From Bacteroidota bacterium (GTDB taxonomy: Bacteria > Bacteroidota > Ignavibacteria > Kapaibacteriales > DASPKH01), in NCBI GenBank assembly GCA_040386315.1, contig JAZKFS010000030.1, positions 13,135 through 76,858 on the forward strand: a DNA stretch of 63,724 nucleotides, read 5' to 3'. Shown here one piece after another: positions 1 to 63,724 of the stretch; position 1 is the first letter of the stretch, and every line of letters starts with the position of its first letter. A model generated the notes under the pieces. It was not told where the DNA came from. It did no database searches and saw nothing but the letters and a program-made list of their open reading frames with translations. A program made the translations under genes and the position numbers.

Positions 1-112
1 GCGGATCTGCGGTGTTCATATTGTGCTTGATGAGGAAACAGGAAAGGCAGAATATATTGAACCATTTATGTACCCCGAAGCAAATCGCGGTACGAAACCT
101 TCCAACATATAG
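1..112 (+). CDS. possible 3' end of an unidentified upstream gene (partial)
   Basis: Frame 2 is open from the window edge to TAG at 110-112. It reads RICGVHIVLDEETGKAEYIEPFMYPEANRGTKPSNI, which looks protein-like. No family recognised. Confidence 0.25.
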   Translation, partial: RICGVHIVLDEETGKAEYIEPFMYPEANRGTKPSNI

Positions 113-186
113 AACTTTAAAATCTTTTCTTTTAAAACATACTTTTAAAAACAATTTTAAAAGATACATTACATTGATATTTCATA

Positions 187-1653
187 ATGAGCACGATAAA
201 AACATTCATATCGCAGAAAACGAAAATTCTCTGCACAATGGGGCCGGCGATCGCTTCGGAAGAAAAACTAACGGAACTGATCGGTTGTGGCGCTAATGCC
301 TTTCGGCTCAATATGTCGCACAGCACACATGCCAATCACCTGGAATACATCAGGCTCATCCGTGATGTAGAAAAAAAACTGGGTGTATATCTGCCTATCA
401 TCGCCGATCTCCAGGGGCCAAAGATACGTGTGTCCAATCTGCCCGGCGATGGTGTGGTCAGTCTTTTAAACGGACGGGAAGTGGTGCTGGTAGATACCGG
501 GGTTTTAAAAAAACATCAGCCGGTGATCCCGGTTGATATGACGGTAATCCCGGTAGAATATCCGACAATTGCCAAAGATGTAAAAAAGGGCGATGCAATT
601 CTTTTTGATGACGGGCTTTTAAAAGTACAGGTCCTCGAAGCAAATGGCGTTTTTGTACGGGTACTTGTAGTGCACGGCGGGCTGTTGAAATCACGTAAAG
701 GTATTAATCTGCCGTATGTGAATATCCGCCAGCCGGCGATGACGAAAAAAGATAAGGAAGATCTTGATTTTGCGATAGCAAATGGCGCTGACTATGCAGC
801 CGTGTCATTTGTACGGACAGTAGATGATGTAAAAATGGTGCGAAAGCATCTCGATATGCGTGGCAGCGATATGTGGATAATTGCAAAGATTGAAAAGCCG
901 GAAGCGGTCGCTAATATCGAAAAGATCATCCAGATCTCCGATGCGATCATGGTAGCACGCGGCGATCTTGGCGTAGAGATCCCGGCAGCACAGGTTCCGC
1001 TGGTGCAGAAAAAAATTATCAATCTTTGCAAACATTTTGCAAAACCCGTCATTACCGCAACGCAAATGCTGGAATCAATGATCCAGAATCCGCGCCCGAC
1101 CCGTGCCGAAGCAAGCGACGTAGCAAATGCAGTCCTCGACGGAACAGATGCCGTGATGCTTTCAGCTGAAACATCCGTTGGAGCATATCCCGTGGAAGCA
1201 GTGTCTTACATGCGGATGATCTGCGCGGAAACAGAAAAAGGATTGTTGTATGAAGGTTTAAAACGATCAACAAAACGCCGCCCGGCTGAAGAGCTGACAC
1301 GAAATCAGATTGCTATGGCAGTCGGCTCCATCGCTGACAGCGGGACTATCAGCGGCATTTGTGTTCACACATTCACGGGTACGACCGTCCGGCTTATTTC
1401 CAAGCGCCGACCTACGGCGCCGATATTCGCTATTTCTCAGGTAGTAGGAGCAGCCCGGCGCGTTGGTATTTTTTCCGGTGTTGTCGGGTTAGTGCTTGAA
1501 GATGCCACAACTACGGACGAAACGATTGACGCTATTAAAAAAATGCTGCTCGACCTGGGGTGCTGCAGTCCGGGCGAAAAGATCGTAATTACTATCGGTC
1601 ATCCTTTAAAAGTCCGTACACGCACAAACATGCTTTCCATTGAATCGCTGTAA
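187..1653 (+). CDS. pyk: pyruvate kinase
   Basis: 488 aa. Contains KILCTMGPA, FRLNMSHS, ADLQGPKIRV, MVARGDLGVEIP and VMLSAETSVG, all classic pyruvate kinase motifs. Confidence 0.95.
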   Translation: MSTIKTFISQKTKILCTMGPAIASEEKLTELIGCGANAFRLNMSHSTHANHLEYIRLIRDVEKKLGVYLPIIADLQGPKIRVSNLPGDGVVSLLNGREVVLVDTGVLKKHQPVIPVDMTVIPVEYPTIAKDVKKGDAILFDDGLLKVQVLEANGVFVRVLVVHGGLLKSRKGINLPYVNIRQPAMTKKDKEDLDFAIANGADYAAVSFVRTVDDVKMVRKHLDMRGSDMWIIAKIEKPEAVANIEKIIQISDAIMVARGDLGVEIPAAQVPLVQKKIINLCKHFAKPVITATQMLESMIQNPRPTRAEASDVANAVLDGTDAVMLSAETSVGAYPVEAVSYMRMICAETEKGLLYEGLKRSTKRRPAEELTRNQIAMAVGSIADSGTISGICVHTFTGTTVRLISKRRPTAPIFAISQVVGAARRVGIFSGVVGLVLEDATTTDETIDAIKKMLLDLGCCSPGEKIVITIGHPLKVRTRTNMLSIESL

Positions 1654-1665
1654 TTTCTTTTAAAA

Positions 1666-2490
1666 ATGGTTTTAAAACCCTCACTGCCGCAGCGCGTGAT
1701 ATGCCTGACGGAGGAAACAACCGAAACGCTCTACGCACTCGGCGCGGATGAACTCATCGTTGGGATTTCCGGATTTACCGTGCGCCCCAAAATTGCACGG
1801 AAAACAAAGCCCAAGGTTTCCACGTATCTTGATGCGAATATTGAAGAGATTTTAAAACTAAAACCCGACATGGTCTTTGCGTGGAGCGATCTCCAGGCGA
1901 ATATCTGCGCACAGCTAATGAAGGAAGGAATTGAAGTTGTCGGTTTTAATCACCGCTCAATCTCCGGAATTCTCGGAATGATCGTTAAACTCGGCGCACT
2001 TGTTGGGAAATTGCCCGAAGCTGAAAAATATGCAGACAAATTATCCCAAAATCTCGAAATAGCTTTTAAAAAAGGCGCTGAGCGAAAACACAAACCACGC
2101 GTGTATTTTGAAGAATGGTACGATCCGCTGATAACGGGAATTACGTGGGTGAGCGAAATAATTGAACTGTGTGGCGGCGACGATATTTTTAAAGAAAACC
2201 GCTATTTTCAGGATGCAAAGCGACGGATTTTAGCAGATAATTCCGAAGTTGTACGCCGCGCGCCGGATATTATGCTCGCCTCGTGGTGCGGAAAGGGTTT
2301 TAAAAAGGAAAAAGTTTTGGCGCGTGATGGTTGGATGGAAATTCCCGCTGTGAAAAATAACCGGATGTTTGACATTCATTCTTCGATTATTTTGCAGCCC
2401 GGCCCGGCGGCACTGACGGAAGGCGTGAACATCGTAATGCAGATTTTTGATAATTGGGAAGCTGAAGTTTTAAAAACAGGAAGCTTTTAA
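1666..2490 (+). CDS. periplasmic-binding-protein-fold (BtuF/FhuD class, cobalamin/siderophore-binding-like) protein
   Basis: 274 aa. Contains RVICLTEETTETLYALGADELIVGIS and PDMVFAW, typical of class III substrate-binding proteins. No obvious signal peptide. Starts 12 nt after pyk. Confidence 0.65.
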   Translation: MVLKPSLPQRVICLTEETTETLYALGADELIVGISGFTVRPKIARKTKPKVSTYLDANIEEILKLKPDMVFAWSDLQANICAQLMKEGIEVVGFNHRSISGILGMIVKLGALVGKLPEAEKYADKLSQNLEIAFKKGAERKHKPRVYFEEWYDPLITGITWVSEIIELCGGDDIFKENRYFQDAKRRILADNSEVVRRAPDIMLASWCGKGFKKEKVLARDGWMEIPAVKNNRMFDIHSSIILQPGPAALTEGVNIVMQIFDNWEAEVLKTGSF

Positions 2491-2493
2491 AAA

Positions 2494-3171
2494 ATGGACG
2501 AAAAAATTTACAAGCTTGTTTTTAAAAACTACTTCGATGCAATTCTCTGTCTGGACGGAACGCTGCCGGAGGAAAGTTTTTTTAAAGCTTTTAAAAATAT
2601 TCCTGTCATCGCAGCGGATGGCGCGGCGGTAAAACTTTTTAAAAAGAATGTTTTTTCTGATATGATTGTCGGTGATCTGGATTCATTTAAAAAGCTCGCA
2701 AATCGCGAGGATTTTTTAAAAAGTGAAATCATCCAGATTGATGAGCAGGACACGAATGATTTTGAAAAGGCTTTAAAAATAATTATCGAACGCGGTTTTA
2801 AAAATATCCTTCTGCTCGGCTTTCACGGCGGTGAACTTGAGCATACGCTGAATAACTGGAGCGTTTTAAAACGTTTTTCAAAGCTCGTGAATATCTGTCT
2901 TTTTGATGAAAATCGTTACGGAATTTCGCTTTTTAAAAGTGTGGAATTTGATGTTGTAAAAAATGAAATAATTTCGCTGATTCCGCAGCCGCGCGTGGAA
3001 ATTACAACGGAAAATCTGGAATGGCCGCTTGTAAAAGAAACGCTTGAACTCGGGATGCGCGAAGGTGCGAGAAATCGGGCTTTGGGTGAAAAAGTTGTTT
3101 TAAAGATCCATTCGGGTGAGATTTTACTTTTTATAAATCCACGGCTGCCGTTTGCGCCGGAATTTCTTTAA
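2494..3171 (+). CDS. thiN: thiamine diphosphokinase
   Basis: 225 aa. Contains VIAADGAA...IVGDLDSF and EQDTNDFEKAL, matching TPK catalytic motifs (GDxDS, DxTDxEkAL). Confidence 0.8.
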   Translation: MDEKIYKLVFKNYFDAILCLDGTLPEESFFKAFKNIPVIAADGAAVKLFKKNVFSDMIVGDLDSFKKLANREDFLKSEIIQIDEQDTNDFEKALKIIIERGFKNILLLGFHGGELEHTLNNWSVLKRFSKLVNICLFDENRYGISLFKSVEFDVVKNEIISLIPQPRVEITTENLEWPLVKETLELGMREGARNRALGEKVVLKIHSGEILLFINPRLPFAPEFL

Positions 3172-3263
3172 AAGAAATTTGTTGGGAGAAGGTAAAAAGT
3201 GACGTATTTTGCAGGAAGTTTTAAAAAGGATTTAATTTTTAAAGAAATCAAAAAGGGTACGAA

Positions 3264-4760: not shown

Positions 4761-5501
4761 TTAAAAAGAAGGATACCACAGTAATGTAAACCGCGGAATA
4801 GAGTAGAATGTGGTAATATCAGCCCGCACGTTATTTTGATCTACGATCCGGTCCTTATCCTCGCCAAACTGAAAATTCAGCCGCCATTCAGCCACCGGGG
4901 TGATGATACCGAAAGGTGTGGGTATATTCCCTAAAATACCTGCTCCGCCACATAGCGCAGTACGCGAATTACCACTTGGTGGAGGCTCATTCGGTGCCGA
5001 TACTGCATCAGGCCCGCCATTAATATTACTAATAATATACGTCCCGCCGAATGTTGCAAAAAAATTAATCCTGCTTTCCGGGCGAAGTACGATATGCGAG
5101 CAAATTTCTATAAATTGATATGTATTGGAATTACTCTGAATCCCTTGTTTTCTATCAGGAGTGAAAATCACCTTTTTATTTTCAGAATATAGATACGTTC
5201 CTTCCAGTATCAGCCAGTCAAGAGGGCTGTATGTAATGGTCGGGCCAAATGATATAAGCCCGTCATAGGAAAACGGCCGCTCGCCTGTTGCCGGAGCAAG
5301 CAATTTCTGAGTTTCTACGATCGTATTTGTCCCAACAGTAAAGCCCACGCCAATAAACTTTTTATACGGATTGACAATTTCCTCTTCTTCATAATATTCG
5401 CCCTCGGTTTCTTCCTGCGCCCACGCCGTTTTAAAAGAAGCAACCACACAAAATGCTATGATCGAAAGCCTGAATAATTTCTTTGCTGTATTCGATGTCA
5501 T
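4761..5501 (-). CDS. possible nested or independent outer-membrane beta-barrel-like protein (internal start at Met241 of the TatD ORF)
   Basis: An ATG at 5501 gives a 246-aa protein with a positively charged n-region, a hydrophobic core and an AWA-Q cleavage-like site. An acidic linker follows, the rest is Gly/aromatic-rich, and the C-terminal residue is Phe. Confidence 0.45.
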   Translation of the reverse strand: MTSNTAKKLFRLSIIAFCVVASFKTAWAQEETEGEYYEEEEIVNPYKKFIGVGFTVGTNTIVETQKLLAPATGERPFSYDGLISFGPTITYSPLDWLILEGTYLYSENKKVIFTPDRKQGIQSNSNTYQFIEICSHIVLRPESRINFFATFGGTYIISNINGGPDAVSAPNEPPPSGNSRTALCGGAGILGNIPTPFGIITPVAEWRLNFQFGEDKDRIVDQNNVRADITTFYSIPRFTLLWYPSF

Positions 5502-6221
5502 TGATAAAACCTCATCAAGAGATGTATTTTTAATTTCTGCAATTTTTTCGGCAATTAATTTCACATAACCCGGCTCATTCCGCTTACCGCGATGCGGCAC
5601 CGGCGTCAGGTACGGCGAATCTGTTTCAATCATCATCCGCTCAAACGGCGTTTGTAAAACCGTTTCCGCCAGCGTTGACTTCTTATACGTAATATTTCCC
5701 GTGTAGGATACGTGAAAATTCAAATCAAGCGCACTTTTTAAAAACTCGGGCGTTCCCGAAAAGCAGTGAAGCACACCTTCCAGCGTCCCGTCCTGTGCTT
5801 CCGTCAGTATTTTTAAAACATCATCATCAGCATCGCGGTTGTGAATTATCACAGGCAATTTTCTGCGCTTCGCAATTTCAAGTTGCTTTTTAAAAATATC
5901 CTGCTGAACGTCCTTCGGCGCAAAATCGTAATAATAATCCAGCCCGATTTCGCCAATCGCCACAACCTTTTTTAAAAAACTTTCACGTTCAACCCGCTCT
6001 AAATCGTCGTCCGTCACATTCGCAACATTATGCGGATGAATCCCGATCCCGCGATACAAACGTGGCTCGCTTTCCACCAAATCCTGTAAATTTTTAAAAG
6101 CTTCCACGCCGATAGACGGAATAATAATATATTCCATTCCCGCATCAAATGCTCTTTTTAAAACCTCGTCGCGGTCTGCCTCAAACGCGTCCGTATCAAT
6201 GTGCGCGTGCGTATCTATCAT
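4761..6221 (-). CDS. TatD-family metal-dependent hydrolase continuing in frame into a beta-barrel-like domain that has its own signal peptide
   Basis: 486-aa ORF. Residues 1-255 are TatD-like (IDTHAHID, EIGLDYYY, IIHNRDA, HCFSG, ETDSPYL, NTAKKLF). Residues 241-486 begin MTSNTAKKLFRLSIIAFCVVASFKTAWA-QE and end in alternating beta-strand patterns with ...LLWYPSF. Confidence 0.85.
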   Translation of the reverse strand: MIDTHAHIDTDAFEADRDEVLKRAFDAGMEYIIIPSIGVEAFKNLQDLVESEPRLYRGIGIHPHNVANVTDDDLERVERESFLKKVVAIGEIGLDYYYDFAPKDVQQDIFKKQLEIAKRRKLPVIIHNRDADDDVLKILTEAQDGTLEGVLHCFSGTPEFLKSALDLNFHVSYTGNITYKKSTLAETVLQTPFERMMIETDSPYLTPVPHRGKRNEPGYVKLIAEKIAEIKNTSLDEVLSMTSNTAKKLFRLSIIAFCVVASFKTAWAQEETEGEYYEEEEIVNPYKKFIGVGFTVGTNTIVETQKLLAPATGERPFSYDGLISFGPTITYSPLDWLILEGTYLYSENKKVIFTPDRKQGIQSNSNTYQFIEICSHIVLRPESRINFFATFGGTYIISNINGGPDAVSAPNEPPPSGNSRTALCGGAGILGNIPTPFGIITPVAEWRLNFQFGEDKDRIVDQNNVRADITTFYSIPRFTLLWYPSF

Positions 6222-6752: not shown

Positions 6753-6770
6753 AAAAGATACAGTATAATT

Positions 6771-6860: not shown

Positions 6861-6870
6861 AACTTTTAAA

Positions 6871-13884: not shown

Positions 13885-13932
13885 TTTTTTAAAAGATTTC
13901 TTTTTAAAAGCGTGTTATGTTTTTAAAACGTA

Positions 13933-15063: not shown

Positions 15064-15093
15064 GAGCTTTTAAAAGAAATCGTTTTAAAAAGA

Positions 15094-15130
15094 AACCGGA
15101 ATAGTTTTTAAAAAGCTGTTCCGGTTTTTT
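15094..15130 (+). terminator. intrinsic terminator (member of the reused CCGGAATAG-TTTTTAAAA-CTGNTCCGG module)
   Basis: Reads AACCGGAATAGTTTTTAAAAAGCTGTTCCGGTTTTTT. Confidence 0.8.
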
Positions 15131-15245
15131 GTTTTTAAAAAGATCCTTTTTTAAGAAAACTTTTAAAAATTTTTTGCTTTAAAGAGAAAATTCCGTAAAT
15201 AGCTGAAAATTCACCTTCACTTTTTAAAACTAAGAGGAAACAGCT

Positions 15246-16910: not shown

Positions 16911-16937
16911 TTTTTAAAAGAAATTCTTTTTAAAAAG

Positions 16938-16978
16938 AAAACCGGAGTAGTTTTTAAAAAGCTAATCCGGTTTTTTTT
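16938..16978 (+). terminator. intrinsic terminator (same module family)
   Basis: Reads AAACCGGAGTAGTTTTTAAAAAGCTAATCCGGTTTTTTTT. Confidence 0.8.
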
Positions 16979-17079
16979 GTTTTTAAAATCAAATCTTTTA
17001 AAGAAAAATCTCATTATATACGATAAATTCTTATCTTGCAGGAAGTAAACAGACGCTATATTTTTTTTAAAGAACTGAT

Positions 17080-20000
17080 ATGAAGAATCTTCTCTTTATA
17101 GTTTTTAGTTTTATTGCGTTATCGCTTTTTGGGAGCGCGCAAAGTCTGGATGTATTTAATATTGACGCATCGGGTTTTCCTGTGATAAAGGCGAATTTTT
17201 ATGCTTTTGATAAAGATGGAAAGCAAATATCAACTCTGGCGCCTTCTGATTTTAAGATCACGGAAGATGGGGTAGCACGAACAGTCAAGACTATATCCTG
17301 CCCACCTGTTGCTCCCCCGCGTGCTTTATCCTCAGTGCTTACAATGGATATATCAGGTTCTATGGGTTCGAGATCGGGAAATATATCAAATCTGGAACTT
17401 GCAAAAACTGCTGCCCGTGCGTGGATTGCGGGGTTGCCTCCGGGGCGATCAGAATGTGCTATTACTGCTTTTGATGATAATAATTATTTTATACAGGATT
17501 TTACAAATAATAAACAAAAGTTATTTGATGCTTTACAGAAACTTGGACCAAACGGTGGAACAGATTATAATAAAGGATTCCTGCTCCCACAGGCCGGCGG
17601 CCTTGAGGTGATAAAGCAGGCTAAATATAAGCGTGTTCTTATATTCCTGTCAGATGGAATACCCAACTTTCCACCTGACGAAAATGCAATAGTGGCATTA
17701 GCTAATCAACTTCAGGTAACGGTTTTCTGTGTAACTCTGGGGCTTCGAATGCCAGAAGTTCTTAAAAATATTGCAAATAAGACCGGTGGAGAATGTTATG
17801 AGAATGTTACCACCCAGTCTCAGGCAGAAGATACGTATATAAAAATCCTGAAGGCAGCCTTGGGAGAGGAGCCGTGTGAATTACAGTGGCTGAGTCAACC
17901 AGAGTGTACTACAGAAAGAAATGTGGACTTCTCTATACCTGCTTATAATGCAAGTGCTAAGACAACCTATAATGCACCTAATAATTCTATTGTTACATTA
18001 GAAGTGGAGCCTTCATCTGTTATCAGTATGGGGAGCGTAGTCCCAGGCACATTTAAGGATACGAGTATCATAGTCAGTGTACATAATTCTATGATTCAAA
18101 TCACCGACGTAACAGTATCTAATCCTACATTAACTATTATTGACTATGGGGGATCTCCACCACCATTTATATTACAGGATGGAGAAAATAGAGTATTGAA
18201 AATACGATTTGCTCCTACAGATTCATCAAGGATTTTCGGGAAAATCATTATTGAAAATGATAAATGCAGCCCTGTCTATGCCTATATAGTGGGAGGCTTT
18301 CGTGGCAAAAAATCTGCAAGCCAGCAATTAAAGCTTACTCATCCTAATGGAGGAGAGGTATTTGTAGTTGGAAGTGATACTACAATTACATGGGGTGGGG
18401 TTCCTTTACGAAATACTGTTAAACTTGACTATAGTGCAGACAATGGAAAAAACTGGGAAAGCATCAAAGAAAAAACTATGGGATTCCAACATGAATGGCA
18501 TGTGCCTAATACTGTTAGTGACCAGTGCCTTGTAAAAGTAAGTTCCTATGAAAGTGATAATAACGATTGGGCAAAATCTATTGCTGGGAAAGGCAATTTT
18601 GCCGTTTATTCTAAAATATCGACAATGACTGTTGATGAATTTGGCGATATGTATTTCTGTGGTTTCCTCCAAACTTCTGGTATTGACTTCGGGCATGGTA
18701 CAACCTTAGATATTAATGGGGGAAAAGATTTATTTGTAGCAAAATATAATTCTGACGGGATCATACTTTGGGCTAAATCTATTATTTCAGGTAGTAGTAT
18801 TGTGAATAGAAATATGATCACTGATATTAAAGCGGATAAATTAGGAAATATTTATATTACCGGCCATTTTGAACAAACGCTGGATTTTGGTAATGGGAAC
18901 ACCTTATCAAGATACACTACACTCACCGAGTCTTCGGATTCTTTCCTTGCAAAACTTGATGGTAATGGTAAGACAATATGGGCAAAAGTATTAGGAGGAC
19001 ACTACGGAGCTACTATACAATCATTGTCCATTGGTAAAGACGGTAATATATATATGGGAGGAAGTTCTCACTCTACTGTACTCTATTCGGATAATATCCC
19101 TGTTATTACTAATCCTGGGGTTCAACAAAGCGATGGTTTTATTATTAAATACGATCCTGAAGGAAACGCATTATGGGGAAGACCTATTAGTGGGGACAAA
19201 AATGATTATGCAATGGCTATAACGACTGATACGTTAAACAATAGTTATATCTGTGGTTCATTCTCGTCCAAGAAGCTTACCATAGATAATGGAGTATCAC
19301 TCGTACATTCATTAGAAGACCCTTATAGTACTACAGAAAGTAAGAATAGTTTTATTATAAAATATAACGCTCAGGGTGGGATGATTTGGGGTAAAAAAGC
19401 CGGAACAAGCAACTACGATCATGCATATGATATTGTCACTAATAATAGTGGGGATATTTATTTGAGTGGTCAATTTTACGATACATTGATTACTTTAGGA
19501 AATGGGATCGAACTTACATTTAAAGATAGAAAACCTGCTCAAGGAAAAAATTATTTGGCAAACTATGATAACAATGGTAATATTCTCTGGGCTAAAATAT
19601 CTCCTGTTGCACAATCTATAGCATCTGATTTGGATGGAAATCTCGTTGTTGGCGGACAATTTCAGGGTTTGGCTGAATTTGGGAATGGGGCTATTCTTAA
19701 TGGATATCCGTATAATCCATCTGGCTTTGTTGCGAAGTATACTCCTGAAGGGGATGTTCTTTGGGCAAAGAAAATAAATAGTTTAGATAGTATTGGTAAT
19801 TTTAATGTAACGGCAGTAGCAACCGATGAAAGAAGTAATATTTACTTTGGTGGAGAATATTTTGGGTCTCTCATCAATTTTGATAATGGCATTACTCTTT
19901 CTTCAACAAAAGAAGGCTTCTTTACCGGTAAATATGCCAAAGCTTCTATTGACCAGACTGATACTTCCGACGCAGTATTCTCCATCGTCAAGCCAATAGC

Positions 20001-21327
20001 CACAAGCCAAAACATTGACATGGGGCGCGTCCTCGTCACATCTTCAAAAGATTCCCTCATTCAAAGTTTTATCATCAATACAGGAAGCTATCCTATCCGC
20101 ATTGATGCCATCAATATTACAGGCACAAATGCTTCTGAATTTCAGCTTGTCTCCGGCATCCCGCCTTTTACTATTCCCGTTGGCGAGAAAAAATCTGTTG
20201 AGTTTCGTTTTCGTCCGACAGCTGTTGGCGGGCGCTCGGCTGATCTGTCGGTAATTACGCAGGCGGATACGCTTTATCAGGCAATTATAGGCGAAGGAGT
20301 CAAGCCTGTTATTCAGATAGCTGCATCACTTATTGATTTTGGTGTAATAGAAGTTGGTTCTTTAAAAGACACAACTGTTACAGCGGTTTTAAAAAACATC
20401 GGCGATGTGCCGCTTTCCATCACCAATACACAAATGCTGGGACCTGATAAGGAGCAGTTTGAAATTATTTCTGGTGGCGGAAGTTTTTCGCTGGCAGCAG
20501 GTGCACAACAGACCATGCAGCTTCGATTCTCGCCGAAATATATCGGCCGTACATCAGGGCAGATCGGCTTTGATTATGCAGGCATGGCAGGCGGCCGTCC
20601 GGCAGTCGTGCAGCTTTTTGGCCAGGGAATTGGAGGTATGGTGTATGTTGTGGACGATTCTGCTTATGTCGGCAAAACCTACGATATGAAACTCATGCTC
20701 GGCAAAATAAAACCGTCGAGCATCGCACAAACGTCTGCAACAGCTTTTAAAGCAAAACTCGCCTTTTCAAATACAATTCTGACTCCAACAAAAAAAGCGC
20801 TTTCAGGCAGTACTGTTTTTAAAAGGAGTACTGAAGTAGATACGCTTGAAATAACCAGACAATGGAACTCGCAGTCAAGCGAACTTGCGCGTATTCCCAT
20901 GGTCGCTACACTTGGAGACAGGATTCAAACTGATGTAGAACTCCTCGAATTTGACTGGCTGGATGATGCAGGTAAGAGCATCGGCTACGATACAGAAGTC
21001 CGGAGCGGAGTTTTTAAAACGCTGGGAATCTGCCCTGAAGGCGGCGACCGCCTGTATGACATCGGTGGAACGGCCCAAATGATGATGGTCGCGCCGAACC
21101 CGGTAAATGGTGTTTCTGAAATAACTTTTGAAACTGTCGAGCGCGGCACAACACGTATTATGATAACCGATGTCCTCGGACGGCAGCAGGTTTTAAAAAG
21201 CGGGGATTTTGAAAAAGGAGATCATTCTTTCCAATTCGATACGGAAAACCTCACATCGGGAATCTACATACTCACGATGCAGACGCCGACGCAAATATTC
21301 ACGCAACAGATCATTATCAATAAATAG
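17080..21327 (+). CDS. giant secreted vWA-domain / beta-propeller-repeat (SBBP-like) protein with T9SS C-terminal sorting domain
   Basis: 1415 aa with a signal peptide. vWA MIDAS-like LTMDISGSMGS. Many D.xGNIY..G.F propeller repeats. Two Ig-like ASH/choice-of-anchor-like segments. The C-terminal about 230 aa is paralogous to 23566-25962, ending in a T9SS CTD. Confidence 0.85.
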   Translation: MKNLLFIVFSFIALSLFGSAQSLDVFNIDASGFPVIKANFYAFDKDGKQISTLAPSDFKITEDGVARTVKTISCPPVAPPRALSSVLTMDISGSMGSRSGNISNLELAKTAARAWIAGLPPGRSECAITAFDDNNYFIQDFTNNKQKLFDALQKLGPNGGTDYNKGFLLPQAGGLEVIKQAKYKRVLIFLSDGIPNFPPDENAIVALANQLQVTVFCVTLGLRMPEVLKNIANKTGGECYENVTTQSQAEDTYIKILKAALGEEPCELQWLSQPECTTERNVDFSIPAYNASAKTTYNAPNNSIVTLEVEPSSVISMGSVVPGTFKDTSIIVSVHNSMIQITDVTVSNPTLTIIDYGGSPPPFILQDGENRVLKIRFAPTDSSRIFGKIIIENDKCSPVYAYIVGGFRGKKSASQQLKLTHPNGGEVFVVGSDTTITWGGVPLRNTVKLDYSADNGKNWESIKEKTMGFQHEWHVPNTVSDQCLVKVSSYESDNNDWAKSIAGKGNFAVYSKISTMTVDEFGDMYFCGFLQTSGIDFGHGTTLDINGGKDLFVAKYNSDGIILWAKSIISGSSIVNRNMITDIKADKLGNIYITGHFEQTLDFGNGNTLSRYTTLTESSDSFLAKLDGNGKTIWAKVLGGHYGATIQSLSIGKDGNIYMGGSSHSTVLYSDNIPVITNPGVQQSDGFIIKYDPEGNALWGRPISGDKNDYAMAITTDTLNNSYICGSFSSKKLTIDNGVSLVHSLEDPYSTTESKNSFIIKYNAQGGMIWGKKAGTSNYDHAYDIVTNNSGDIYLSGQFYDTLITLGNGIELTFKDRKPAQGKNYLANYDNNGNILWAKISPVAQSIASDLDGNLVVGGQFQGLAEFGNGAILNGYPYNPSGFVAKYTPEGDVLWAKKINSLDSIGNFNVTAVATDERSNIYFGGEYFGSLINFDNGITLSSTKEGFFTGKYAKASIDQTDTSDAVFSIVKPIATSQNIDMGRVLVTSSKDSLIQSFIINTGSYPIRIDAINITGTNASEFQLVSGIPPFTIPVGEKKSVEFRFRPTAVGGRSADLSVITQADTLYQAIIGEGVKPVIQIAASLIDFGVIEVGSLKDTTVTAVLKNIGDVPLSITNTQMLGPDKEQFEIISGGGSFSLAAGAQQTMQLRFSPKYIGRTSGQIGFDYAGMAGGRPAVVQLFGQGIGGMVYVVDDSAYVGKTYDMKLMLGKIKPSSIAQTSATAFKAKLAFSNTILTPTKKALSGSTVFKRSTEVDTLEITRQWNSQSSELARIPMVATLGDRIQTDVELLEFDWLDDAGKSIGYDTEVRSGVFKTLGICPEGGDRLYDIGGTAQMMMVAPNPVNGVSEITFETVERGTTRIMITDVLGRQQVLKSGDFEKGDHSFQFDTENLTSGIYILTMQTPTQIFTQQIIINK

Positions 21328-25962: not shown

Positions 25963-25987
25963 TTTTTGAAAGAAGTTCTTTAAAAGA

Positions 25988-26024
25988 AAACCGGAATAGT
26001 TTTTAAAACTGCTCCGGTTTTTTG
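25988..26024 (+). terminator. intrinsic terminator (same module family)
   Basis: Reads AAAACCGGAATAGTTTTTAAAACTGCTCCGGTTTTTTG. Confidence 0.8.
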
Positions 26025-26198
26025 TTTTTAAAAACATTCCGTAAGTTTGAAACGCGGGTTTTTAAAAGGGACGCCCGTTCTCACAAAAGACGACGTCACC
26101 CTTTTTAAAAACTGCCTCAAAACCTGTTCTTTGTCAAAATTGTTTGTAAATAAAATTCCGCCTATTGTGAGATGTGGCGAAGTAATGGAGTATGTTTT

Positions 26199-26801
26199 AT
26201 GAACAATCTACGACGACGCAATCCTCTGGAAGAACTCAAGATCCAGGCATCAATTCTCCTCAAAGACCTCAATTCCGATGAACCCGAAAAGTTTTTAAAA
26301 GCCACAGCGCGTTTTAAAAATTTGCCGCATTATGCTGAAAAATCAGCAGAAGAAATCGGGCTTTTAAAAAGTGAAATTAAACGCAAACACGTGCTTGCAG
26401 TTTTGGCTGCCGAGCGCGGTTTTAAAACGTGGAGCGAGCTGCGCGATGATATTATCTCGAAGGAATGTCTGCATCGTCCGATGGGCGGCAGCAGCTTTTT
26501 AAATCACTGGTTTGCAAAGTATGACGAAGCGCGTGAGCAGTTGGAAAAGCACGGTGGATATTTGCTTCAGTATCGCGATAGTTATTTTGTGTGCGAGAGT
26601 GGTTATATTAAATTTCTCGGGCTGGATTCTTTTAAAAACGAATGGGAAAAGATCGGTTATGATTGGGTAAAACCCGCCGACAAAAAAGCGTGGGAAGTGA
26701 TCTTTAAAAAGGCAAAAGAAAATTATCTACTTGACCCGGTTTCTTTTAAAAAGAAGGAGTTTTTTAAAACTTTTAAAGCGCGCAACAATGAAAACAAATA
26801 A
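26199..26801 (+). CDS. hypothetical protein
   Basis: About 200-aa ORF, ATG at 26199 (an alternative ATG is at 26172). No family recognised. Overlaps the next gene by 14 nt. Confidence 0.55.
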   Translation: MNNLRRRNPLEELKIQASILLKDLNSDEPEKFLKATARFKNLPHYAEKSAEEIGLLKSEIKRKHVLAVLAAERGFKTWSELRDDIISKECLHRPMGGSSFLNHWFAKYDEAREQLEKHGGYLLQYRDSYFVCESGYIKFLGLDSFKNEWEKIGYDWVKPADKKAWEVIFKKAKENYLLDPVSFKKKEFFKTFKARNNENK

Positions 26802-27159
26802 GGAATTAAAAGCAGAATATAAACTGATGAAATTTCCCACTGGCGTGTACCAGATCCGCAATACAAAAAACGGGAAAATCTTCGTTGACAGTAGCACGCA
26901 GCTCGACAAAGTATGGAATTCAAAACGATTTCAGCTTCAGCTTGGCGGACATCCAAATCGTAGTTTGCAGGCGGATTGGAATACATTTGGCGAAGACGCT
27001 TTTGTGTTTGAAATTCTTGACGAAGTAAGGCAATTGGACGATGAACGCGAGCTTGATTTTAAAAAGGAGGCGGAAGTTTTAAAAGAATTGTTTATTGAAG
27101 AATTGCAGCCGTTTGGCGAGAAGGGTTATAATAATTCACCGAAAAACAGGATTTTTTAA
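26788..27159 (+). CDS. GIY-YIG nuclease-family protein
   Basis: Start at MKTNKELKAEYK. PTGVYQIRNTKNGKIFVDSSTQL plus R....L..G.H.N..LQ.DW...G...F.FE is the small GIY-YIG family pattern. Confidence 0.7.
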   Translation: MKTNKELKAEYKLMKFPTGVYQIRNTKNGKIFVDSSTQLDKVWNSKRFQLQLGGHPNRSLQADWNTFGEDAFVFEILDEVRQLDDERELDFKKEAEVLKELFIEELQPFGEKGYNNSPKNRIF

Positions 27160-27166
27160 AACGCAA

Positions 27167-27206
27167 AAAGCCGGAATAGTTTTTAAAAACTGCTCCGGCT
27201 TTTTTA
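27167..27206. terminator. bidirectional intrinsic terminator (same module family)
   Basis: Reads AAAGCCGGAATAGTTTTTAAAAACTGCTCCGGCTTTTTT, between convergent genes. Confidence 0.8.
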
Positions 27207-27234
27207 CTTTTAAAAACAAGATTTTTAAAAGGAA

Positions 27235-34630: not shown

Positions 34631-34860
34631 TGGAGTATATCTTAGTTGTATAAAATATTTACTGCAATCTACAAACCACTACTGACAATTACAAAATAGT
34701 TTATTAGAAAAACTAAAATAAGTAAAATAAATAATTGCAAAGCGTGAGATTTGCTAACTTTGCTGAAATATAATGAATATTGCACTGCTGTTTGTAAGGA
34801 AATGTCCGCAGTTATGTCTGAATTTATTAAATCAAATCGAAAAGTTAACAAATTAAGCCA

Positions 34861-36771
34861 ATGACCATATTTTCAGTCAATAATCTCTCAAAAGCATTTC
34901 TCGATAAAACCCTTTTTAAAGGCATTTCCTTCGGTATGGAGGAGGGCGAGCGCGTGGGCATCATCGGGCGGAATGGCGCGGGAAAGTCCACGTTTTTAAA
35001 AATTATCGCAGGGCTGGAAGTGGCCGATGAGGGCACCGTTGCTGCGAACCGCGAGCTGCGCATCGAATATCTCAATCAGTTGCCGGAATTTGCCGAGCAT
35101 GCCCGCGTGCTGGATGCCGTGATGGATGCGCGTCCCGAGGTGAATGAGCTTTTGCGCGAGCACGCACGCATTTGCAAGCTGATGGAAACCTCGCATGATG
35201 AGGAAATCCAGAATCGCCTTGAAACAGTTTCCTCGCGGCTTGAGCAGACGGACGGCTGGAATCTTGAAACGGAAGCAAAAATAATTCTGCAAAAGCTCGG
35301 CGTTACGCGCTTCGACGAGGATGTGAAAAATCTTTCGGGCGGGCTGCGGAAACGTGTTGCACTGGCGCGTGTGCTGCTGATTGACCCGGATTTGCTGATA
35401 CTGGATGAGCCGACGAACCACCTTGATGCGGATTCAGTTCAGTGGCTTCAGGACAGGTTGCAGCACTCGTCGAAGGCCCTACTGATTGTGACGCACGACC
35501 GGTATTTCCTCGATGCGGTGAGCAATAAAATCGTGGAGCTCGACCAGAATAAAATGTTTTATTACCCGGGAAATTACGAGCAATATCTCATTCAAAAAGA
35601 AGCGTTTCTCGACACGCAGGAATCCACTGCCGACCATCAACGCAATAAACTCCGGCAGGAACTTTTCTGGCTGGCAAAAGGTGCGAAAGCCCGCCGCACC
35701 AAGCAACAGAGCCGCATCAAGTGGATTGACGAAATGCAAAACCAGGAAAAGCACGTTGAGCAGAAAAATCTTAAAATTGAGCTCGGCAATTCCTTCCTCG
35801 GCAGCAAAGTCATTGACGCGGTGAATATTAGCAAAAGCATCGGTGGGAAACTGCTTTTTAAAAACTTTGAATATAACGCCGCGCCCGGCGACCGCATCGG
35901 TATCATCGGGCCAAACGGAACGGGAAAATCCACGCTTTTAAACACACTCGCGGGAAAAATCCAACCTGACACGGGAAAAGCCACGCTCGGCGCAACCGTA
36001 AAGTTGGGTTTTTTCCATCAGGAAATCAAGCATTTTGACGAATCGCAAACCGTCATCGGCAGTCTCCGCGAAATCGCCGAATTCATCGACACCGGCGTTG
36101 GAAAAGACCGTTTCCTCACGGCAAAAGATTTGCTTGAGCGCTTCCTTTTTCCCGCAAAACAGCAGCACTCGCGCATCGAAACGCTTTCCGGCGGTGAGCG
36201 GCGGCGGCTGGCCCTTCTGCATATTCTCATGGCCAATCCAAACGTGCTTTTACTCGATGAGCCGACGAACGATTTCGACGTTGCCACACTTTCCGCGCTC
36301 GAAGATTACCTGCGGAATTTCCTCGGCGCGCTCATCGTCGTGTCGCACGACAGGTCGTTTTTGGATAATACCGTTGAGCATATTTTCGCGTTTGAAGAAG
36401 GCGGAACCATCAAAAAATATCCGGGCAATTATTCCGCATATCTTGAGAAAAAAGAAGCGAAAAATCAGGAAAAAGCAGACGAGAAAGTTTTAAAAGAAAA
36501 AGCTTTTAAAAGCGAGTCTTTAAAACCCCAACAGCCAATTGCCAATAACCAAAAGCCGAAAAAACTTTCTTTTAAAGACCAACAGGAATTTAAAAAACTG
36601 GAAGAAGAAATTAAAAAATTAGAAAAGCAGAGAACTGAAATAAATGAATTTTTGGCCTCAGGCGGTACGAACTATAAAGAGCTTGACGAAAAATCAAAGC
36701 TTTTAAAAACAATCGAAGAGCGGCTTGAAGAAGCGGAAATGCGCTGGCTGGAATTAAGCGAACTGGCATGA
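34861..36771 (+). CDS. ABC-F family ATPase (two ABC cassettes, no TMD)
   Basis: 636 aa. Walker A GRNGAGKST and GPNGTGKST, signatures LSGGLRKR and LSGGERRR, and a Lys/Glu-rich coiled C-terminal tail. Confidence 0.92.
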   Translation: MTIFSVNNLSKAFLDKTLFKGISFGMEEGERVGIIGRNGAGKSTFLKIIAGLEVADEGTVAANRELRIEYLNQLPEFAEHARVLDAVMDARPEVNELLREHARICKLMETSHDEEIQNRLETVSSRLEQTDGWNLETEAKIILQKLGVTRFDEDVKNLSGGLRKRVALARVLLIDPDLLILDEPTNHLDADSVQWLQDRLQHSSKALLIVTHDRYFLDAVSNKIVELDQNKMFYYPGNYEQYLIQKEAFLDTQESTADHQRNKLRQELFWLAKGAKARRTKQQSRIKWIDEMQNQEKHVEQKNLKIELGNSFLGSKVIDAVNISKSIGGKLLFKNFEYNAAPGDRIGIIGPNGTGKSTLLNTLAGKIQPDTGKATLGATVKLGFFHQEIKHFDESQTVIGSLREIAEFIDTGVGKDRFLTAKDLLERFLFPAKQQHSRIETLSGGERRRLALLHILMANPNVLLLDEPTNDFDVATLSALEDYLRNFLGALIVVSHDRSFLDNTVEHIFAFEEGGTIKKYPGNYSAYLEKKEAKNQEKADEKVLKEKAFKSESLKPQQPIANNQKPKKLSFKDQQEFKKLEEEIKKLEKQRTEINEFLASGGTNYKELDEKSKLLKTIEERLEEAEMRWLELSELA

Positions 36772-45498: not shown

Positions 45499-47424
45499 AT
45501 GTCAAAAGTAATTGGAATTGACTTGGGAACGACGAACTCGTGCGTTTCGGTAATGGAAGGCTCACAGCCAGTCGTTATCGCAAACTCCGAAGGCGGGCGC
45601 ACAACGCCGTCTATCGTTGCCTTCACAAAAAGCGGTGAGCGTATCGTAGGCCAGGCGGCAAAACGCCAGGCAATCACAAATCCGAAAAACACGGTGTATT
45701 CAATCAAACGCTTCATGGGCCGCAAGCTCGCTGAAGTGGGCGATGAGACGAAGATGGTTCCGTATAAAGTGGTGCCGTCGGAAGATGGAAATGCAATTCG
45801 TGTGGACGCTGAAGGCCGCATGTATTCTGCGCCGGAAATCTCTGCGATGATTCTTCAGAAAATGAAGCAGACGGCGGAAGATTATTTGGGGCAAAAAGTA
45901 ACGGACGCGGTTATTACTGTTCCGGCGTATTTTAATGACGCTCAGCGCCAGGCAACAAAAGATGCGGGTGAAATCGCAGGACTGAATGTTCGCCGTATCA
46001 TCAACGAGCCGACAGCGGCTGCGCTTGCGTATGGAATGGACAAGAAAGGCCAGAATATGACGATCGCTGTGTATGACCTTGGTGGCGGTACATTTGATAT
46101 TTCGGTTCTGGAAATCGGCGAAGGCGTTTTTGAAGTAAAATCAACAAACGGTGATACGCACCTTGGCGGTGATAACTTTGACCAGCGTTTGATTGAATAT
46201 CTTGCTGATGAATTTAATAAACTGGAAGGAATTGACCTTCGCAAAGACCCGATGGCGCTTCAGCGTTTGCGCGAAGCTGCTGAAAAAGCGAAAATGGAGC
46301 TTTCGCAAATGCTCCAGACGGATGTTAATCTTCCGTTCGTAACAGCAACCGCTGACGGCCCGAAACACTTGAATGTAAACCTGACACGCGCGAAATTTGA
46401 AAGCTTGTGCGCTGACCTTTTTGAAGGTACTTTAAAGCCGGTTGAGCAGGCGATTCGTGATGCGAAAATTACTCCGGCGGAAATTGATGAAGTGATTTTG
46501 GTTGGTGGTTCGACGCGTATTCCGAAAATTCAGGAATTAGTGAAAAAGTACTTCGGAAAGGAGCCGTCAAAAGGCGTAAATCCTGATGAAGTTGTTGCTA
46601 TTGGCGCAGCAATTCAGGGTGGCGTATTAACCGGTGAAGTAAACGACGTTCTTCTTCTTGACGTGACACCGCTTACGCTTGGTATCGAAACGCTTGGTGG
46701 CGTGATGACGCCGATGATTCCGTCAAATACGACAATCCCGACAAAGAAAACAGAAACATACTCGACAGCAAGCGACAGCCAGACGTCGGTAGAAATCCAT
46801 GTGCTCCAGGGCGAACGCTCGATGGCGCGTGATAACCGCTCGCTTGGTAAATTCCACCTTGACGGAATTCCACCTGCTCCGCGCGGCGTGCCTCAGGTAG
46901 AAGTTACGTTCGACATTGATGCAAATGGTATTTTGTCCGTGAGCGCGAAAGATAAAGCGTCCGGCAAAGAGCAGAATATCCGCATCACATCAAGCGGTGG
47001 CTTGGCTAAAGAAGAAGTTGAGCGCATGAAACGCGAGGCGCAAGACCACGCAAGCGAAGACAAAAAGCGCAAAGAGGAAATTGACCTGCGCAATCAGGCC
47101 GACAACCTTATCCACTCAACCGACAAGCAGTTGAAAGACCTTGGCGACAAAATGGACGACGCGACAAAAACAAAAATCGAAGAAGCGAAAACCCGTCTCC
47201 AGGACGCTATGAACAACAATGCAGCCGACCTCAGCCCGGCAATGGACAACCTGAACCAGATCTGGAGCGAAGCATCAACCGCAATGTACCAGAATGCAAG
47301 CGCAGGAGCAGCACAACCGGGAGCAGAAGGTGCAGCAGGCGAAGGCCAGCCAAACGCAGGCGGAAACGCCAACAGCGGCGCGGAAGAAGCTGAATACACG
47401 GTAGTAGATGACGACAAAAAATAA
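45499..47424 (+). CDS. dnaK: molecular chaperone DnaK (Hsp70)
   Basis: 641 aa. Contains [30 protein letters not shown] and the EEVD-like acidic tail. Confidence 0.98.
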
Positions 47425-47460
47425 TCTTTTAAAACGATAAAATTTTTAAAAGTTTTTAAA

Positions 47461-47490
47461 AGCGTTCTGAGAAATCAGGACGCTTTTTTT
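47461..47490 (+). terminator. intrinsic terminator after dnaK
   Basis: AGCGTTCTGA-GAAA-TCAGGACGCT followed by TTTTTTT. Confidence 0.75.
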
Positions 47491-47597
47491 GTTTTTAAAA
47501 GATTTTAAAAGAAATTCTCACGATTTTTAAAAACATTTCTCTAAATTGTGTGTTATGCAAAAGATGATGTTTAAAAAAGACTTTTTAAAAGGATTTC

Positions 47598-54567: not shown

Positions 54568-54576
54568 ATTGAAAAA

Positions 54577-59551: not shown

Positions 59552-59552
59552 G

Positions 59553-62937: not shown

Positions 62938-63036
62938 TGTGCGTAGTTGTTGGTTTTAAAAAAAACAGAATTAGCAGGCAAAATTACAGCGTGATTTTCC
63001 GCTTCGCAATTCTTTTACAACCGCTTCTTAAAAATC

Positions 63037-63069
63037 AAAAAGCCGGAATGCAAATACATTCCGGCTTTT
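63037..63069 (-). terminator. intrinsic terminator
   Basis: Reads AAAAGCCGGAATG-CAAATA-CATTCCGGCTTTT. Confidence 0.75.
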
Positions 63070-63101
63070 AAAAACCTATCCTTTAAAAAGATTCACGCAA
63101 G

Positions 63102-63554
63102 TTATTCCGCATAAATTGACTGAAGGCGAATTGACGGCTCCAGCGTGATGTGCGTTTTCAGCGATTCGGTAATCAGGCAATTCGCCTCAGCTTTAAAAAG
63201 CAGCCGCGACGCTTTGTCAACATCTTCGTCTTTTAAAACCGTCAAAACGGGCCTTAGCGTAATTTCGCTAATCATGTATTTCCCGTCCACCTGTTCCAAT
63301 TTCCCGGTTGCGTGCGACGTAAATTCAAAAAAGTCCAGCCGCGATTTTTCTGCAATTGCGAGAAATGTCGTCATCAGGCAACTATTCGCTGCGGCTACAA
63401 GCAGGTGTTCCGGCGACCAGATTCCGGCGACTCCTTTATCAAATTCCGGCGGCGTGGCCACTTCAATCGTGTCGTTCAAAATTTGCGAGCTAAGCGTACC
63501 GGTGCGGCCGCCGTCCCAGTGTAGCCCGACTTCATAATAATGTGCGTTTTCCAT
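63102..63554 (-). CDS. OsmC/Ohr-family peroxiredoxin-like protein
   Basis: Start at MENAHYY. Contains SPEHLLVAAANSCLMTTF and EANCLITESL (the two conserved Cys contexts of OsmC). Confidence 0.85.
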   Translation of the reverse strand: MENAHYYEVGLHWDGGRTGTLSSQILNDTIEVATPPEFDKGVAGIWSPEHLLVAAANSCLMTTFLAIAEKSRLDFFEFTSHATGKLEQVDGKYMISEITLRPVLTVLKDEDVDKASRLLFKAEANCLITESLKTHITLEPSIRLQSIYAE

Positions 63555-63597
63555 GATATTCACCTTTTTACAATATTTGTGAGAGTTTTTAAAACTG

Positions 63598-63724
63598 TTA
63601 TAATTTACGTTGCAAACCCGTCCAGCTGCCGCCATTATACACTTCGCTGAAACCGCCGGTTTTTAAAAGATTCACAGCCGCGCCGCTGCGAACGCCCGAA
63701 GCGCAACACGTGATGACGGGTTTA
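63598..63724 (-). CDS. rhodanese-domain protein, 3' end (partial)
   Basis: The minus-strand frame reads ...KPVITCCASGVRSGAAVNLLKTGGFSEVYNGGSWTGLQRKL*. CxSGxRS is the rhodanese active-site loop. The gene runs off the window edge. Confidence 0.75.
   Translation of the reverse strand, partial: KPVITCCASGVRSGAAVNLLKTGGFSEVYNGGSWTGLQRKL

Follow-up and report, generated by a model that had tools for sequence, protein, structure and literature searches.

The closest described systems to the element reported here are the highly iterated palindrome HIP1 of cyanobacteria, the DNA uptake sequences (DUS) of the Neisseriaceae and the uptake signal sequences (USS) of the Pasteurellaceae. HIP1 (GCGATCGC) is a palindromic octamer that is over-represented 15-300-fold in coding and non-coding DNA alike and conserved above control palindromes; its single-mismatch variants are conserved too, lineages differ in the word they carry, and it is scarce in some highly expressed genes. 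It occurs about once per gene, a 10-90 kb periodicity has been reported for it, and no gene-level association has been found. A role as a Chi-like self-marker in recombination has been suggested for HIP1, and it was recently reported to raise transformation in a way that depends on methylation and to co-vary with DNA-uptake-related genes. DUS and USS occur about once per 1.1-1.5 kb and are reported to be lacking in genes acquired recently. Most DUS are intergenic and often form the inverted repeats of terminators, with high conservation in permissive regions (Treangen 2008), and uptake sequences roughly double the tripeptides that they encode in the proteome (Findlay & Redfield 2009). Here we analyze a 63,724-nt stretch of DNA (43.9% G+C; henceforth the window) from an uncultured Bacteroidota bacterium (GTDB lineage Bacteria; Bacteroidota; Ignavibacteria; Kapaibacteriales; DASPKH01), namely positions 13,135-76,858 on the forward strand of contig JAZKFS010000030.1 (assembly GCA_040386315.1). 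In it we describe the 8-letter palindrome TTTTAAAA, a real hyper-abundant word whose copies occupy independent sites, are strongly retained, have reshaped codons and proteins, are specific to one clade and are associated with the ends of genes. The sequence-only reading that preceded this analysis did not recognize the word as a described element, and our literature search agrees: none of the best-ranked papers containing the word describes its genome-wide enrichment in a bacterium, and searches for iterated palindromes, for uptake sequences and for the bacterial group itself led to nothing beyond work on HIP1 and DUS/USS.

Besides these 64 kb of the host genome, which make up less than 5% of a genome, our sequence basis comprises about 60 kb from close relatives, of which the syntenic assemblies L081, L082 and L083 (77-89% nucleotide identity to the window) were used for synteny and conservation. 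The gene set consists of 52 non-overlapping open reading frames (ORFs) of at least 93 aa each, with Pfam support for 41, and scans of the window against Rfam and for tRNAs gave no matches. The word compared with TTTTAAAA was AAAATTTT, a control of the same composition.

We counted 310 exact copies of TTTTAAAA in the window, i.e. 4.9 per kb or about one per 200 bases, where dinucleotide-preserving shuffles of the same DNA give 12.2 ± 3.2 copies and at most 19. The word ranks first among octamers, whether these are ordered by number of copies or by order-3 z-score (z=42); the other top octamers are all shifted versions of it, the most frequent octamer unrelated to it has 23 copies, and the control AAAATTTT is found 10 times against 18.7 expected. 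Such a many-fold over-representation of a palindromic octamer, which is typical of HIP1, is seen in the window and in three related assemblies. The hand counts of the sequence-only reading (20 copies in nt 1-3240 and seven in nt 47425-47597) proved exact, and its impression of a density above the figures reported for the uptake sequences and HIP1 was supported. Its estimate of an excess of two orders of magnitude holds against base composition only (order-0 Markov expectation 2.4, a 127-fold excess) and not against the dinucleotide shuffles; the expectation is 12.2 at order 1 (25-fold), 18.2 at order 2 (17-fold) and 41 at order 3 (7.5-fold). At orders 5-6 the observed/expected ratio sinks to 1.1-1.0 (1.01 at order 6), a value near unity that the same reading had named as grounds for discarding the enrichment. 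Though formally reached, it is uninformative, because the sub-words consist of the motif itself: 310 of the 368 TTTTAAA and TTTAAAA heptamers (84%) and, via TTTAAA, 443 of the 599 TTAA sites are nested within TTTTAAAA. A maximal-order model is therefore conditioned on the very signal under study and is unable to refute it.

When junctions between maximal T-runs and A-runs are tabulated by length, an isolated island stands out at T4-5A4-5, and the converse A-run/T-run junctions show nothing comparable; hence the unit is a run of four or more T that passes into a run of four or more A, both halves being equally required. The spectrum of single mismatches is mirror-symmetric, with deviations scarce at inner positions (6-16 at positions 2, 3, 6 and 7) and most frequent at the two outer ones (58 and 58), CTTTAAAA and TTTTAAAG being the commonest variants (n=38 each). 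The word is thus a dyad-symmetric 8-bp site at the DNA level, for which a dimeric protein is a likely reader. The composition of the flanks equals the background beyond ±2 nt, no palindrome extends outward from the word, and the complementarity of the flanks is at the level of chance. Repeat finding recovered only families produced by co-occurring copies of the word, plus one gene-end terminator module of 60-75 nt. With random flanks and no repeat family behind them, the copies thus represent a true iterated palindrome of independent sites in genes and spacers, as originally proposed. The further statement that the word fills the loops of terminator hairpins was overstated: only about seven of the 125 intergenic copies are located at the apex of a longer hairpin, and we accordingly rejected a general role as the apex of longer palindromes or terminator loops. 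Spacings between neighboring copies form a broad hump at 12-16 nt, into which most adjacent spacer sites fall, and within the window show no preference for 10-11 or 21 nt of the kind that a phased A-tract array would display.

By location, 179 copies fall within ORFs, 125 between genes and six across stop codons, the latter because the TAA of the word is itself the stop. Non-coding DNA makes up 11% of the window but holds 40% of the copies, and the density is six-fold higher between genes (18.5/kb) than in coding sequence (3.1/kb). Within genes the copies are distributed evenly along gene length and, as had been noticed beforehand, occupy only the two frames that avoid a stop: 101 read xTT-TTA-AAA ([FLIV]-L-K), 78 read xxT-TTT-AAA-A (x-F-K-x) and none reads TTT-TAA. 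These 179 copies compare with 26.7 ± 4.7 when synonymous codons are shuffled within genes and with 5.7 ± 2.3 when codon order is shuffled; as both values are far lower, codon choice and amino-acid order each contribute to the excess. The word is realized in 78 of the 90 x-F-K-x contexts and in 101 of the 118 [FLIV]-L-K contexts, that is, in 86% of the peptide contexts compatible with it, and one third of all TTA leucine codons fall inside it. Set against the 26.7 of 208 contexts that the shuffles lead one to expect, the use of these contexts has an odds ratio of about 40, which would correspond to a scaled advantage of roughly 4, expressed as 2Ns or as a conversion bias of equal effect; this would match the strength of the strongest codon bias, yet act across all genes. 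As a side observation, the 101 xTT-TTA-AAA copies (e.g. those at 503, 617, 2714 and 2864) constitute -1 slippery heptamers of the form U UUA AAA (X XXY YYZ), so that about 100 such sites, which we predict to be slippery, are tolerated in 57 kb of coding sequence.

The imprint on the encoded proteins, of which the sequence-only reading had correctly quoted VLKK and LLKV in pyk and VFKN in thiN, extends to the composition of the gene set as a whole. FK is the most over-represented dipeptide (observed/expected 1.87-1.89, against 1.38 in relatives of the clade and 0.80-0.84 in outgroups) and LK the third most over-represented (1.56-1.61, against 1.0 in outgroups); this roughly two-fold rise over the outgroups, together with the frame bias, is the peptide signature of uptake sequences. 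At aligned sites of TatD (4761..6221, minus strand, seven copies) this genome encodes VLK, IFK and VLK, the corresponding tripeptides of the sister lineage without the motif being VLE, IFR and VLR, indicating that arginine and glutamate were replaced by lysine. Other copy-rich genes are that for thiamin pyrophosphokinase (2494..3171, plus strand), with seven in-frame copies (10.3/kb) encoding FK and LK, and a plus-strand ORF of 209 aa and unknown function (26172..26801), likewise with seven (11.1/kb). At the other extreme, dnaK (45499..47424, plus strand) lacks the word, as had been pointed out, but avoidance does not account for this: it and the two hsp20 genes have no copies because they offer not a single compatible F-K or [FLIV]-L-K context. 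Copy density is uncorrelated with G+C content at third codon positions (GC3), and several AT-rich genes are among the poorest; together with the shuffles, this led us to reject a by-product of A/T richness or codon usage. A plus-strand gene for a surface protein with VWA and type IX secretion system (T9SS) sorting domains, which is AT-rich (GC3 0.33), has a copy-free stretch of 3.4 kb (16989..20386). A second copy-free patch (33838..34993) covers a 236-aa ORF that belongs to no family and an AT-rich 230-nt spacer (34631-34860), its flank not being shared with relatives, and a further word-free stretch, non-syntenic or atypical, lies at 40235-42083.

The intergenic copies are not placed at random. 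As the sequence-only reading had it, they cluster after stops and before starts: a copy begins within 10 nt past the stop in 27 of the 52 genes (in 16 of these 27 within 1-5 nt), and one ends at most 8 nt upstream of the start in 15 of the 52, most often 4 nt upstream. Among genes with 3' flanks of at least 60 nt, such a post-stop copy is present in 17 of 33, where about 19% would be expected from the intergenic density (p=3e-5). The preference is seen alike for TAA, TAG and TGA stops and recurs in the relatives (16 of 37 genes, counted over the same 10 nt past the stop); the outgroups show no post-stop motif. Density is 38 copies/kb in spacers of up to 60 nt and 17/kb in longer ones, and some operon junctions are scarcely more than stop-NNNN-TTTTAAAA-ATG. 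For instance, the 12-nt spacer after pyk (1654..1665, plus strand) reads TAA-tttc-TTTTAAAA-ATG, with the word accounting for 8 of the 12 nt, and a 48-nt operon spacer (13885..13932) holds three copies (13887, 13902 and 13921). Six genes terminate on a TAA supplied by the word. In one of these, the copy at 2485..2492 (plus strand) provides the stop of the gene at 1666-2490 and its A-run leads to the next start at 2494; the remaining stop-supplying copies start at 4759, 14323, 30283, 32141 and 56901. The TAA of post-stop copies has no frame preference relative to the upstream gene (gaps modulo 3 = 4, 11, 6), nor do the spacings of neighboring copies (28, 27, 21), and the idea that the word furnishes backup stops, whether in frame or covering all frames, accordingly found no support.

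A terminator module of 60-75 nt with 3-4 copies of the word recurs 4-5 times at gene ends. The first (15064..15168, plus strand; family D5) consists of the stop, T4A4, 7 nt, T4A4, a hairpin CCGGAATAGT[T4A4]AGCTGTTCCGG, a T-run and a last T4A4; the second (16911..16988, plus strand) is 83% identical to it, a third lies at 25963..26033 (plus strand), and a fourth (27154..27230, minus strand) is situated downstream of the minus-strand gene at 27235-27687. From its architecture the module looks like a bidirectional terminator. The excess between genes, at gene 3' ends and in terminator modules parallels that of DUS and USS. A few small genes were probably missed, and some of the copies counted as intergenic may hence be coding: a 110-aa ORF at 26827-27159, first counted as intergenic, falls where the window can be aligned with L082 and has no Pfam match at E ≤ 0.01; this ORF and a second, probable small one near 54330-54600 imply that intergenic length is slightly overestimated. 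By eye the former ORF had appeared nuclease-like and was considered as a reader or writer of the word, a notion that Pfam does not support. Separately, TAG is the stop codon in 16 of 51 window genes (31%), as against 4 of 45 and 36 of 177 in sampled relatives.

Comparison with the relatives shows that the sites are retained well above control octamers in genes and spacers alike, as is the case for HIP1. In L081, 85% of the copies in genes are conserved (control octamers 29-38%) and 56% of those in spacers (25-29%); the corresponding values are 83% (34-40%) and 69% (26-31%) in L082, and 61% (25-27%) and 26% (11-18%) in L083. The copies thus persist far longer than neutral sequence. The 173-nt spacer between dnaK and the next gene (47425..47597) illustrates this, in that its seven copies are mostly conserved in position in the three related assemblies, with variants in the lengths of the T- and A-runs. 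In a four-way alignment of about 8 kb we found 52 site clusters, of which 16 have the word in all four assemblies, 17 lack it in one and 12 have it in one only. Where the word is missing, the orthologous state differs by 1-2 mismatches or is a run-length variant (e.g. T4A4, T5A4, T7A3), and copies are therefore gained and lost by ordinary point changes; the independent origin of copies by substitution, which had been proposed as a check on the word's reality, is borne out by this alignment. Single-mismatch variants are unchanged between species in 52-65% of cases and matched to the full word in 7-18%. The quartet topologies along the alignment are mixed (190, 168 and 115 sites), with support varying from place to place (p=0.008), a pattern compatible with recombination among members of the clade.

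DnaK assigns the organism to the Fibrobacteres-Chlorobi-Bacteroidetes (FCB) group, the best matches among species representatives being metagenome-assembled genomes (MAGs) of Ignavibacteria/Kapabacteria with at most 78% identity and the nearest Kapabacteria/Ignavibacteria sequences overall lying at 78-82%, and several window genes encode T9SS sorting domains. A large protein collection yielded four DnaK proteins 93-96% identical to that of the window, the next being at most 82% identical. Contigs carrying a DnaK of at least 93% identity, from at least three other assemblies, have 2.8-5.6 copies/kb at 44-45% G+C, whereas those of the roughly 81% identical relatives have 0-0.46. As the former were assembled from different samples and come from JGI, Logan, ENA and NCBI, the enrichment is not an assembly artifact. 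None of 80 related loci is enriched (at most 0.34 copies/kb), and chance occurrence in relatives of similar composition, the other doubt raised beforehand, is not borne out, given that relatives of like G+C content have 0-0.3 copies/kb. The enrichment is confined to one genus-level clade, with an abrupt onset; it is thus a clade-specific word at about 1/kb or more, as DUS and USS are, and it differs from the HIP words, which are G+C-rich (GATC/CGATCG) and cyanobacterial, in its A/T-only sequence and FCB host. Among the matches listed, a metagenome scan gave at least three more loci, all from one sample and belonging to this clade, along with tandem arrays and AT-rich noise, and two viral scans gave no phage with the enrichment and otherwise noise; as negatives for other lineages and phages, these searches and that of the related loci are weak.

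Three neighboring observations emerged from these searches. A Campylobacter Mu-like prophage (L092; IMG/VR UViG_2718217985_000001), 97.6% identical to phage CAM-P21 and of an unrelated AT-rich lineage, has 21 dispersed copies of TTTTAAAA against 6.3 expected, a mild excess of about three-fold, and none of AAAATTTT. The contig DASPKH010000362.1 (L084; GCA_035628175.1), filed under a 'Patescibacteria group bacterium' MAG, carries the enrichment, but it has FCB-type genes including a T9SS sorting domain, is near-identical to L083 and L085, and is probably mis-binned. Conversely, the sister lineage L086 (DnaK 81%) shows the opposite tendency, with two TTTAAA in 21.9 kb against about 9-15 (8.7-14.6) expected, which might reflect a DraI-type restriction system; we rejected this as a general hint of a DraI-like activity in the relatives, since only L086 is depleted.

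As the closest published behaviors are those of uptake sequences and HIP1, we rank first, and tentatively favor, the reading that TTTTAAAA is a lineage-specific, dyad-symmetric, DNA-level self tag of the USS/DUS/HIP1 kind. The word arose through independent point substitutions across the genome of one genus-level FCB clade, filling nearly every position that coding permits and altering amino acids in the process, and under this proposal selection or a molecular drive of corresponding strength would maintain it. The tag would be used in DNA uptake and/or in homologous recombination between clade members, possibly being read in a methylated state, as has been reported for HIP1, and alleles carrying it would be preferentially taken up or recombined and would hence spread. 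The copies at gene ends would have been co-opted as TAA stops and as the A-run and T-run around bidirectional terminator hairpins, and those before starts as A/U-rich unstructured leaders, in a lineage with relatives devoid of Shine-Dalgarno sequences. A more far-reaching version, which we regard as somewhat doubtful, posits that the word acts as the cis-element of a genome-tagging system that came into being recently and in this lineage only, whose reader and perhaps writer were gained at the base of the genus, with the word being driven to about one in 200 positions, synonymous sites and amino acids being rewritten on the way, and to the punctuation of gene ends.

Several points speak against a self tag. 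There is no competence, pilus, recombination-specific or DNA methyltransferase gene in the 64 kb of the window and the roughly 60 kb of the relatives, which is absence of evidence, and neither an AT-hook or HU-like protein nor any other candidate reader or writer is found among the 52 window proteins. DUS and USS lack symmetry, contain G+C and are about five times sparser than TTTTAAAA. The copies that follow the stop in half of the long 3' flanks are not predicted by a model in which the word merely accumulates at permissive sites, and the recombination signal could represent homoplasy at about 16% divergence. Finally, genes missing from the relatives have the word at normal density (4.8/kb in a Fic gene and 5.5/kb in an ADP-ribosylglycohydrolase gene), unlike the recently acquired genes from which DUS and USS are reported to be absent.

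An alternative that we consider unlikely, though it survives best of the others, is that the word is bound by a dimeric nucleoid or architectural protein of high abundance recognizing the flexible TpA step between T-tract and A-tract, which would organize the chromosome or mark gene boundaries under weak selection per site. T4A4 differs sharply from A4T4 in curvature and in the flexibility of the TpA step, and the strict dyad symmetry of the site, the 12-16 nt that separate most adjacent spacer sites and the strong placement at gene ends and starts all agree with such a protein. Moreover, a nucleoid role is the published proposal for HIP1 (Xu et al. 2018). The absence of a 10-11 bp helical phasing between neighbors, the tolerance of copy-free stretches of 1.2-3.4 kb and the lack of a candidate binder encoded in the window argue against it, as does the demand for an exact octamer that is filled in 86% of the in-gene opportunities: we know of no nucleoid protein that requires an exact octamer or drives synonymous sites to such saturation.

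Still less probable, in our estimate, are two explanations that we hold to be about equally so. One is a methylation-linked biased repair of the very-short-patch type, as in Elhai's model for HIP1, in which an orphan methyltransferase would act on the inner TTTAAA and repair would convert near-matches to the full word, its abundance being a by-product of this drive. The near saturation of compatible contexts regardless of gene agrees with such a drive. The TTTAAA core is a typical type II palindromic site, with the specificity of DraI. The concentration of deviations at the outer positions is likewise reported for HIP1 (Elhai 2015). Yet no DNA methyltransferase or Vsr-like gene is present in the window and the related loci, placement directly past stop codons is left unexplained, and near-matches persist between species far more often than they are matched to the full word, even though an efficient converting repair should erase them.

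The other would locate the primary function in RNA, with UUUUAAAA, the form of the word at that level, serving as punctuation of gene ends and starts (in termination and recycling, re-initiation or processing) in a bacterium without Shine-Dalgarno pairing, the in-gene copies being secondary. Bacteroidota have A-rich leaders in place of Shine-Dalgarno sequences, and this explanation accommodates the post-stop copies of the window and its relatives, which occur with any stop codon or spacer length and are lacking in the outgroups, the pre-start copies with their commonest distance of 4 nt, the higher density in short spacers and a mild asymmetry of the flanking bases relative to the direction of transcription. 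It fares badly with the 58% of copies that lie in genes, where they are evenly spread and saturate the compatible contexts, and with the dyad symmetry, which an RNA signal does not need although both halves are equally required here. Nor would it predict a TAA devoid of frame preference, or a density that is equal in divergent promoter regions, which are probably in part untranscribed.

That the word arose neutrally from a mutational bias of this lineage (run slippage or context-dependent substitution, for example), with neither function nor drive, is very improbable: the differences in T- and A-run length between species at orthologous sites are of the sort it predicts, but conservation is two- to three-fold above that of matched A/T-rich octamers, amino acids have changed to accommodate the word, neither AAAATTTT nor other A/T octamers show enrichment, and copies are fewer in AT-rich genes, their density being uncorrelated with GC3. 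The spread of a single mobile repeat family, either a miniature inverted-repeat transposable element (MITE) or a repetitive extragenic palindrome (REP), a possibility that the sequence-only reading had itself raised, deserves practically no credence and is refuted for more than 90% of the copies, for despite the recurrent terminator module and the REP-like elements that often adjoin a copy, the copies have background flanks with chance complementarity and no longer conserved element or hairpin, are not excluded from coding sequence (179 being in frame inside unrelated genes), and have orthologous non-motif states 1-2 substitutions away.

The spacers of the window additionally contain two REP/MITE-like families of inverted repeats that are distinct from the TTTTAAAA population. 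The first is of the form GTCATTCCCGC...GCGGGAATGAC, with perfect 28-nt arms at 6769-6861, and the second of the form CCCCTCC...GGAGGGG; elements of this kind are found at 6771-6859, 9015-9115, 31976-32115, 44394-44483 and 60868-61158, and also at 31844-31965 and 45195-45314. Several of them adjoin a copy of TTTTAAAA, the element at 45195-45314 being flanked by copies on both sides. Tandem paralogues of a beta-eliminating lyase (tryptophanase or tyrosine phenol-lyase family) at 30349-31785 and 32143-33621 are about 80% identical over stretches of their DNA, and the spacer between them is full of REP-like elements along with five copies of TTTTAAAA. Upstream of dnaK, an inverted repeat of about 50 nt (CCTGTTTAAAATT...AATTCTGAACAGG; 45383-45433) is near-invariant in four assemblies, the adjacent spacer having diverged; it contains TATTTTTG, which is similar to the Bacteroidota -7 promoter box, and may be a heat-shock operator or an RNA element.

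We also observed differences in gene content between the window and its relatives. A 4.9-kb island (38829-43715), which is absent from three related assemblies and in which no integrase was seen, encodes a 93-aa ORF, a WYL/helix-turn-helix regulator, an Nmad3 protein, a 227-aa ORF and the ADP-ribosylglycohydrolase, and has on either side the direct repeat TTTTAAAACCTTTTTT (38812 and 43699), which is single-copy in the relatives. The Fic-domain gene (50591-52039) is inserted between genes that are adjacent in L081, its junctions being devoid of TTTTAAAA. At 36772-36790, the window lacks an Acyl_transf_3 gene that L081-L083 have between their ABC-F and NlpC/P60 genes.

The origin of words of the HIP1, USS and DUS type, and the function of HIP1, are still debated after about 30 years. 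TTTTAAAA offers a case independent of the known ones, being from another phylum-level group, of an A/T-only alphabet and denser, and it provides the clearest saturation of word-compatible codon contexts so far. Its enrichment is phylogenetically young and sharply bounded, with the nearest sister lineage lacking it, and comparative genomics could therefore pinpoint the responsible protein. Were the genome-tagging system to prove true, it would give a first view of how a word of the HIP/USS type originates and sweeps a genome, and the association with stops and starts is a second testable handle on function. In practical terms, octamer-aware binning would recognize the clade, and gene callers and composition-based tools will be biased by the word.

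Set against known systems, TTTTAAAA resembles HIP1 in being palindromic, many-fold enriched in genes and spacers, and conserved together with its mismatch variants; it differs in its A/T-only sequence, its occurrence in an FCB genus, a several-fold higher density (4.9/kb), a six-fold richness between genes and the tie to stop and start codons. Its abrupt, genus-level onset recalls the alternative HIPs and the 'dialects' of DUS. With the DUS of Neisseriaceae and the USS of Pasteurellaceae it shares numerous clade-specific copies, the approximate doubling of the encoded peptides, the preference for intergenic regions, 3' ends and terminators, high conservation, and an origin and upkeep explicable by mutation-selection balance or molecular drive. 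However, those are asymmetric 9-12-mers containing G+C, with uptake bias and receptors shown experimentally, whereas TTTTAAAA is its own reverse complement and is carried by accessory genes too. Like Chi it is a short over-represented word that could be a marker of self in recombinational processing; known Chi sites, however, are G-rich and asymmetric, follow replication in their orientation and are enriched few-fold at most, properties not seen in TTTTAAAA. REPs, bacterial interspersed mosaic elements (BIMEs) and MITEs are similarly abundant in spacers and sometimes associated with terminators, but they are conserved hairpins of 20 to >100 nt, spread by transposition and excluded from genes, in contrast to an 8-nt word with random flanks and 58% of its copies in frame. 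The short palindrome with its TTTAAA core is reminiscent of a restriction site; host genomes normally avoid their own such sites, and this one is enriched 25-fold or more. Among hyper-abundant words, then, TTTTAAAA is unusual in its A/T-only sequence, its density, its near-saturation of coding opportunities and its tie to stops and starts.

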